Virus record (IMG/VR): IMGVR_UViG_2778261453_000015
Location: 1-8,684 of that record
Source of the DNA: a virus
Taxonomy: Duplodnaviria > Heunggongvirae > Uroviricota > Caudoviricetes
DNA length: 8,684 nucleotides
Direction: 5' to 3' (one strand)
The first letter of the stretch is position 1. The number at the start of each line of letters is the position of its first letter. Under the pieces are notes generated by a model that had not been told where the DNA came from, did no database searches, and worked only from the letters and a program-made list of their open reading frames with translations. Both the position numbers and the translations under genes were made by a program. Positions 2,789 through 2,892 of the stretch are shown here, one piece after another.

Positions 2789-2810
2789 AAAAAACCCGCC
2801 AGGCGGCGGG
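2789..2810 (-). terminator. tR'-like intrinsic terminator just downstream of the late promoter (minus strand)
   Basis: Minus-strand RNA: perfect 6-bp G/C stem CCCGCC/GGCGGG (2795-2810) with a 4-nt loop, followed by UUUUUU (complement of 2789-2794). Lies about 40-60 nt downstream of the predicted pR'-like start. Confidence 0.55.
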
Positions 2811-2859
2811 GTGTAAAAAATCTTCTAACGTCAGGCATAAAACGCCCATCTTTAGAGCA

Positions 2860-2887
2860 AATTTACCACAGATTCGGGAAAAATCAA
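2860..2887 (-). promoter_or_regulatory. pR'-like late promoter (candidate Q-utilisation region)
   Basis: Minus strand: -35 TTGATT (2887..2882), 16-nt spacer, extended -10 TGGTAAATT (2868..2860), 5 nt after the Q stop codon. The GGTAAATTTG string resembles the lambda pR' -10 region as I recall it. Confidence 0.45.
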
Positions 2888-2892
2888 CAACA

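Follow-up and report, generated by a model that had tools for sequence, protein, structure and literature searches.

We analysed a stretch of 8,684 bases (the window) from the Caudoviricetes record IMGVR_UViG_2778261453_000015. All of its genes lie on the minus strand, and the elements described here are given in minus-strand order, 5′ to 3′ (Table 1). A gene for a Q antiterminator is followed by the interval 2789–2892, in which a promoter, a pause signal and a terminator are predicted within ~100 bases. A first-pass annotation had read the start of this interval as a -35 TTGATT, a 16-nucleotide (nt) spacer and an extended -10 with the hexamer TAAATT, directly after Q; its motifs and coordinates are correct, and the strand, which it left unstated, is minus. 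The GC-rich terminator that it placed downstream is likewise present, as a hairpin and T6 tract at +44 to +65 of the predicted transcript. Minus-strand 2789–2892 is very likely the cis-acting part of a late-gene antitermination cassette of the Q-lambda type, a reading that rests on sequence anatomy, homology, conservation and modularity. The mechanism is the textbook Q/pR′/tR′ one in compact form; only the instance is new.

Table 1. Features of the late-control cassette and its neighbours in the window, in minus-strand order (minus strand throughout; ORF, open reading frame; positions with a plus sign are relative to the predicted transcription start)
Feature	Position	Remarks
Q antiterminator gene	2893-3713	Q-lambda family, long 273-amino-acid 'QuuQ-like' subtype
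Q ORF1	3534-3713	59 amino acids
Q ORF2	2893-3537	214 amino acids
Q stop codon TAG	2893-2895	
Gap tgttg, Q stop to -35	2888-2892	5 nt
-35 hexamer TTGATT of pR′	2882-2887	Aligned position is TTGATT or TTTACT in every related locus
Spacer TTTCCCGAATCTGTGG	2866-2881	16 nt; candidate Q-binding element, from conservation within the clade
Extended -10 TG	T2868, G2867	From the last spacer bases
-10 hexamer TAAATT	2860-2865	Identical to lambda pR′ -10; TAAATT or TAATTT in relatives
Six bases TGCTCT	2854-2859	Between -10 and pause hexamer
Predicted transcription start A2853	2853	
-10-like pause hexamer AAAGAT	2848-2853	Predicted +1 to +6; lambda register
GGG discriminator-like triplet	2845-2847	+7 to +9
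Leader	2811-2844	34 nt, +10 to +43; segment CGTTTTATGCCTGACGTTAGAAGA nearly invariant in E. coli-type cassettes
TATG	2836-2839	+15 to +18; putative T-N-Y-G match, kept in most E. coli-type leaders
tR′ hairpin CCCGCC-gcct-GGCGGG	2795-2810	6/6 G-C pairs; tops the terminator list
tR′ T6/U6 tract	2789-2794	Predicted RNA 3′ end near +65
65-amino-acid ORF	2469-2666	First gene after tR′; TrmB-family regulator in some phage records; no Pfam match
Second intrinsic terminator	2465-2482	After the 65-amino-acid ORF; GCCTTCCGCAGTGAAGGC then TTTTTTATTT
N6/N4 DNA methyltransferase gene	1253-2317	Pfam PF01555, E = 1e-44
ParE/RelE-like toxin gene	886-1224	
Helix-turn-helix antitoxin gene	451-825	

Predicted promoter and pause element in the register of lambda pR′

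The order of promoter, pause element with GGG, and terminator is that of lambda pR′, and this arrangement is kept in more than 100 related loci; the first-pass annotation had called the promoter and terminator layout canonical. The lambda record gives TTGACT-17-TAAATT, so that the -10 hexamer is indeed the same, as the first-pass annotation had stated. When the window is set beside lambda pR′, TAAATT-N6-AAnGAT-GGG falls in the lambda spacing: AAAGAT + GGG starts 6 nt after the -10, as does AACGAT + GGG in lambda. The window contains one instance of the pattern TAAWTT-N6-AANGATGGG, where 0.01 would be expected by chance. The putative sigma-70 promoter, TTGATT-16-TGnTAAATT, is kept in position across the relatives, directly downstream of Q. 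In lambda the sigma-70-dependent pause element comprises AACGAT (+1 to +6) and the discriminator-like triplet GGG (+7 to +9) (PMC4005639, PMC5001585), and the pR′ pause itself lies at +16, with the pause consensus T+14 N+15 Y+16 G+17 (PMC9191641). The TATG at +15 to +18 of the window meets this T-N-Y-G consensus, and the predicted paused RNA is therefore 17 nt long.

Among 71 viral contigs the pause hexamer is AACGAT in 49, and a further six have AACGAT in a register shifted by one base. The rarer forms are AATGAT (5), AACTAT (4), AATAAT (4), AACAAT (1) and the AAAGAT of the window (1). Variation is limited to positions 3 and 4, whilst A2, A5 and T6 are kept, which is the pattern expected of a site read by sigma region 2. 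These contigs thereby provide a natural mutational scan of the sigma-dependent pause element. The first-pass annotation passed over this element, which is the best evidence for the late-control interpretation.

A locus scan, limited to one genome per species, recovered 27 loci whose Q proteins are 53-98% identical to that of the window, from the genera Escherichia, Klebsiella, Kluyvera, Enterobacter, Silvania, Pseudescherichia, Yokenella, Leclercia and Phytobacter. The layout in almost all of the 27 is (TTGATT/TTTACT)-TTTCCSGAAWCTGTGK-(TAAATT/TAATTT)-N6-AACGAT-GGG. Mean pairwise identity over the 43-nt block from the -35 to +9 is 0.86 (28 loci), and over the final 80 codons of the neighbouring Q gene it is 0.87 at codon position 2 and 0.47 at codon position 3 (same 28 loci). 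For the window against the 21 distant loci, the block stands at 0.82 and Q codon position 3 at 0.39. Within the block, it is the six bases separating the -10 from the pause hexamer that vary. These comparisons indicate that the non-coding block from -35 to +9 is under purifying selection. Further downstream, every related locus has a hairpin and a T-rich tract in about +28 to +70, with the tract ending at ~+54 to +71, and at least three unrelated terminator hairpin sequences occupy that place among the related loci. Upstream of the block, many clade members from outside E. coli (loci L014, L024, L030, L034 and others) share a conserved inverted repeat, GCTCACG...CGTGAGC, which lies between the Q stop and the -35, 10-45 nt ahead of the latter; the window, with 5 nt in that interval, lacks it.

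Of 5426 complete E. coli genomes, 1654 carry the 110-nt element, unannotated, and in E. coli E03 it is 100% identical; the records of HK225, ES18 and SfV annotate a rho-independent terminator at the equivalent place. In phages Evi, mEp460_ev081, vB_EcoS-640R1 and Stx2_EH1910 the cassette stands beside an intact Q, and lysis genes or stx2AB lie 1-3 kilobases (kb) downstream, with late genes at that place in Evi and 640R1 and stx2AB in Stx2_EH1910. The value of the identification is mostly one of annotation, since it offers a pR′-pause element-tR′ label for ~1650 complete E. coli genomes. Some of these are Stx2a phages, in which this promoter would drive stx2.

The spacer as a candidate Q-binding element

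The spacer TTTCCSGAAWCTGTGK is nearly invariant within the clade although the Q proteins are only 53-98% identical, and this extends to the cultured phages HK225 and mEp237 and to Erwinia phage 49. The corresponding sequence is TTTTCAAAAAATATGGA in K-12 Qin and SfV, whose Q proteins are ~40% identical to that of the window, TATTGAATAAAATTGGG in lambda and AAGTGGCGATTTTTGTT in ES18. Such conservation is not expected of an ordinary sigma-70 spacer. Constancy within a Q clade, together with difference between clades, fits a Q-specific binding site between the -35 and the -10, and Yarnell and Roberts reportedly placed the lambda Q site between these two hexamers in 1992. The comparative data therefore supply a candidate Q-binding element (QBE) for a large Q-lambda subfamily, that with an extended DnaJ-like zinc arm. 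If the candidate is right, CCCGAATCTGTG would be needed for Q binding and read-through and would be dispensable for the promoter. Lambda Q itself binds promoter DNA and loads onto the sigma-paused complex (PMC9388147).

The likeness to lambda Q/pR′/tR′ extends to the Q family (PF03589, with a colinear Q), the -10 TAAATT, the -10-like pause element with GGG 6 nt past it, and an intrinsic terminator followed by further genes. Some relatives of the window also have lambda-like bases at +7 to +24 (GGGTTAATGCCTTCGTT, against GGGTTAATTCGCTCGTT in lambda). The two systems differ in their dimensions: the Q stop lies 5 nt from the -35 here and 45 nt from it in lambda, and the terminated RNA is predicted at ~65 nt, shorter than the lambda 6S RNA, which is 194 nt long. 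They also differ in the details of the promoter, with a -35 TTGATT, a 16-nt spacer and an extended -10 TG in the window, and TTGACT and a 17-nt spacer in lambda. The pause hexamer is AAAGAT rather than AACGAT, the spacer sequence is unrelated to that of lambda, and the T-N-Y-G motif is shifted downstream by 1 nt. Lastly, the window Q is frameshifted and has a 68-residue zinc-arm insertion relative to lambda Q.

The Q proteins of K-12 Qin (ydfT, or quuQ) and SfV, 40% identical to that of the window, are of the same long subtype and have its DnaJ-like CxxC insertion. Their cassettes are equally compact, with a promoter, AACGAT + GGG, a related leader (GGGCTTTGTATaCCcGACGTTAAG) and a CCCGC...GCGGG terminator, and their spacer TTTTCAAAAAATATGGA differs from that of the window, as expected for a different Q specificity. 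The Qin cassette is unannotated in E. coli K-12 MG1655 (locus L037; 1642391-1642459, minus), where it follows ydfT and reads TTGCAT-17-TAAAAT, then AACGAT + GGG and CCCGC...GCGGG. Our literature search found no experimental study of Qin ydfT or of the SfV Q region, and searching on quuQ, ydfT and the spacer sequence gave nothing relevant. The Q proteins of HK225 and mEp237 belong to the same clade as that of the window (56-61% identical); here the spacer, TTTCCCGAATCTGTGT, is essentially the same, and AACGAT + GGG and a hairpin terminator are again present. These two phages differ from the window in their -35 (TTTACT), their -10 (TAATTT), a lambda-like leader and an unrelated terminator (GCCCcGCGG...CCGTGGGGC).

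The divided Q gene and the downstream module

By analogy with lambda, sigma-70 polymerase would start constitutively at pR′, at about A2853, from a promoter lying 5 nt past the Q stop. Sigma region 2 would then re-bind AAAGAT + GGG at +1 to +9, and the polymerase would pause, in a scrunched state, at ~+17 at the TATG. Without Q, transcription would end at the hairpin and U-tract (+44 to +65; stop at +60 to +67), with release of an RNA of ~65 nt. With intact Q, the protein would bind the spacer TTTCCCGAATCTGTGG and load with NusA onto the paused complex, and the N-terminal segment of Q would form a nozzle on the RNA-exit channel, as in lambda. The Q-modified polymerase could then read through both tR′ and the second terminator (2465-2482) into the downstream genes.

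The first-pass annotation described the upstream gene as a lambda-type Q. As to family this holds, for the product matches Pfam PF03589 (E = 6e-50) and the lambda Q structure 7UBM (E = 1e-40), with which it is colinear over residues 1-113 and 182-273; the gene, however, is split in the window by a 1-nt deletion. Residues 114-181 (window ~3171-3374) constitute the 68-residue insertion, which adds two extra CxxC motifs to the zinc arm and brings it to four CXXCXGXG-like motifs in total, as in the DnaJ zinc-finger domain. This long form of Q is common to K-12 QuuQ/YdfT, HK225, mEp237, ES18 and SfV. The gene measures 821 nt in the window, against a single 822-nt ORF in Stx2_EH1910, Evi, mEp460_ev081 and vB_EcoS-640R1, because a GGG run near 3546 has become GG. 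The two resulting ORFs are joined by an ATGA stop/start overlap, and both Q pieces might be translated by way of it. Inspection of the sequence around the frameshift showed no canonical -1 slippery heptamer in the required frame.

The deletion separates the N-terminal 56 residues of Q, the segment of the nozzle and of flap-tip binding, from residues 60-273, which hold the DNA-binding body and the zinc arm. In lambda Q, residues 1-44 form the exit-channel torus, and a protein lacking residues 1-38 retains QBE binding whilst antitermination is abolished; fragment 61-207, the crystallised DNA-binding fragment, binds the QBE (PMC9388147). The first residue of ORF2 is the equivalent of lambda Q residue 60, and ORF2 is thus nearly the same as fragment 61-207; the split Q should therefore bind DNA and not antiterminate, unless the pieces complement each other. 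From this comparison with lambda, Q is probably defective and the switch stuck off in this contig. If the deletion is real, the cassette would be expected to remain permanently in the terminated state, and the window would come from a prophage whose own Q cannot switch on late genes.

These considerations lead to the possibility that the cis elements are genuine and that the unit no longer serves as a switch here, a decaying prophage with a split Q making the terminated 65-nt RNA and nothing longer. This disputes the activity of the element and not its identity, and we hold the chances to be evenly balanced. None of the relatives examined shares the 1-nt deletion in Q, both truncated products being on record only in NOCO01000073.1 (GCA_002549675.1), which is the window itself. 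Moreover, Q is cut where its disordered N-terminal 60 residues meet the folded DNA-binding body, lambda Q without residues 1-38 no longer antiterminates (PMC9388147), and the NgoMIV endonuclease gene of the window is likewise broken by the loss of one base. However, both deletions may have arisen in assembly, translation of the two pieces might be coupled through the ATGA overlap, with complementation in trans a possibility, and a compatible Q might come from a second prophage of the same cell. The cis elements, for their part, carry no disabling change. That the split Q works as a two-piece antiterminator appears less likely still than the riboregulator considered below.

Irrespective of the state of Q, the cassette reading is strengthened by the way in which the terminator is shared. 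Megablast matches to the Q module end at 2787 and matches to the downstream module begin at 2810, and therefore the recombination junction is the terminator itself. The same terminator and downstream genes (the 65-amino-acid ORF and the methylase) stand behind all three non-homologous Q families, with homology starting at the hairpin (loci L007, L006, L008 and L118). These families, named here after PMC9388147, are Q-lambda (PF03589; this window), Q21 (PF06530; PhiR5_1, phiP27 and Stx2a_WGPS2) and Q82 (PF06323; E. coli 2014C-3051). That one terminator and module should be shared across three Q families supports the hairpin as a common antitermination target. Downstream, the Stx phages have the same methylase followed by tRNA genes and stx2AB; in the window the toxin-antitoxin pair holds that position, and no tRNA genes are present. 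The 10-mer TGTGGTAAAT, which spans the extended -10 of pR′, also occurs right after the T-tract of the second terminator (2440-2482), where it may be a chance match or a weak promoter of the methylase gene.

Several observations weigh against reading the interval as a Q-dependent late-control cassette. The promoter hexamers match 8 of 12 sigma-70 consensus positions and do not appear in the list from a generic sigma-70 scan, because the threshold of that scan is 9 of 12 hexamer positions. The pause hexamer AAAGAT is a rare variant, found in 1 of 71 viral contigs and at the Enterobacter soli locus L029, and the -35-like element beside the pause element, which is TTGCTC here and TTGACT in lambda, is variable among relatives. 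The window spacer shows no obvious resemblance to that of lambda, the QBE label being drawn from conservation only. The frameshift in Q may be an assembly error, and the second 1-nt deletion, in the NgoMIV gene, fits a decaying prophage or an error-prone assembly. Within its 8.7 kb the window contains no lysis or structural genes, the 65-amino-acid ORF, the methylase and the toxin-antitoxin pair being what precedes the contig end. Lastly, our literature search found no transcript, pause or binding data for the window sequence or for its Q clade.

The generic scan also bears on a quite different account, in which the hairpin merely ends early-operon or Q transcription, the hexamers and AAAGAT are accidental, and the late promoter lies elsewhere. 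The scan calls no promoter at this site, and neither promoter-like nor terminator-like sites are commoner in the window than in shuffled sequence. It is uninformative in this respect, and the case therefore rests on homology and conservation. Here the accidental account fares badly, for across genera whose synonymous sites have diverged the 43-nt block is as conserved as second codon positions, and its register is exactly that of lambda pR′ and its pause element. The hexamer varies in the pattern of a -10-like element, and the stretch from the terminator to the downstream genes offers no other promoter-like site. We therefore regard coincidence as very improbable.

The predicted terminated RNA and other features of the contig

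The tR′ hairpin alone folds at -11.9 kcal/mol and is formed in both the minimum free energy (MFE) and the centroid folds. It is the only robust structure in the predicted terminated RNA of ~65 nt (60-67), the folding of which is unremarkable as a whole (z = -1.3). Three further candidates at this site were rejected. A 5′ hairpin that the MFE fold places at +7 to +21 is broken by the natural variants G11->U/C and G18->A without compensation; a 22-amino-acid ORF at 2781-2849, starting at +5, is not conserved, relatives reading ATG GGT TAA; and a bidirectional terminator was dismissed, the opposite strand having no T-tract after the hairpin. A permissive search of Rfam 15 (E up to 1) gave no match in the cassette, although we did not check whether Rfam includes a StxS model.

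StxS provides the precedent for a further alternative, in which the ~65-nt pR′-tR′ RNA would itself be the main selected product, a trans-acting Hfq-dependent regulator, with antitermination secondary. In Stx phages with a 144-amino-acid Q, the pR′-tR′ transcript is processed to a 74-nt small RNA (Sy, Lan and Tree 2020, PMC7547250). Both short RNAs arise when transcription from pR′ stops at tR′, directly after the Q gene in a lysogen, in our case by prediction. They differ in that pR′ and tR′ are 258 nt apart for StxS and the transcript is cut by RNase E to 74 nt, whereas here the ~65 nt would be the whole primary transcript and the associated Q belongs to a different family. In favour, an A/U-rich single-stranded stretch precedes the terminator hairpin and U6 in the predicted RNA, E. 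coli-type cassettes show strong conservation of the leader between +10 and +33, and 30% of complete E. coli genomes contain the element. Conversely, the Rfam search gave the cassette no match, the overall fold is unremarkable (z = -1.3), and the predicted 5′ hairpin is broken, uncompensated, by natural variants. The needs of pausing and of Q loading can account for the leader conservation, the leaders of distant clade members are unrelated, and no target is known. We consider such a role unlikely, and no less doubtful the version in which the RNA is a host-benefiting, trans-acting riboregulator like StxS, here uncoupled from a working Q. Were a riboregulator to exist, it could explain the intact leader and cassette even in decaying prophages.

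Elsewhere in the contig, the NgoMIV-family restriction endonuclease gene (5598-6110 and 6149-6610, minus) has its single-base deletion near 6226 relative to 60 E. coli genomes, and the adjoining cytosine-5 methyltransferase gene (6489-7607) is intact. This suggests either an orphaned methylase in a decaying prophage or an assembly indel error. The sole Rfam match in the window is a sok antitoxin RNA (RF01794; 7544-7724, minus), which scores 67.9 bits, above the gathering score, and points to a toxin-antitoxin locus of the hok/sok type, upstream of the replication and nin region.

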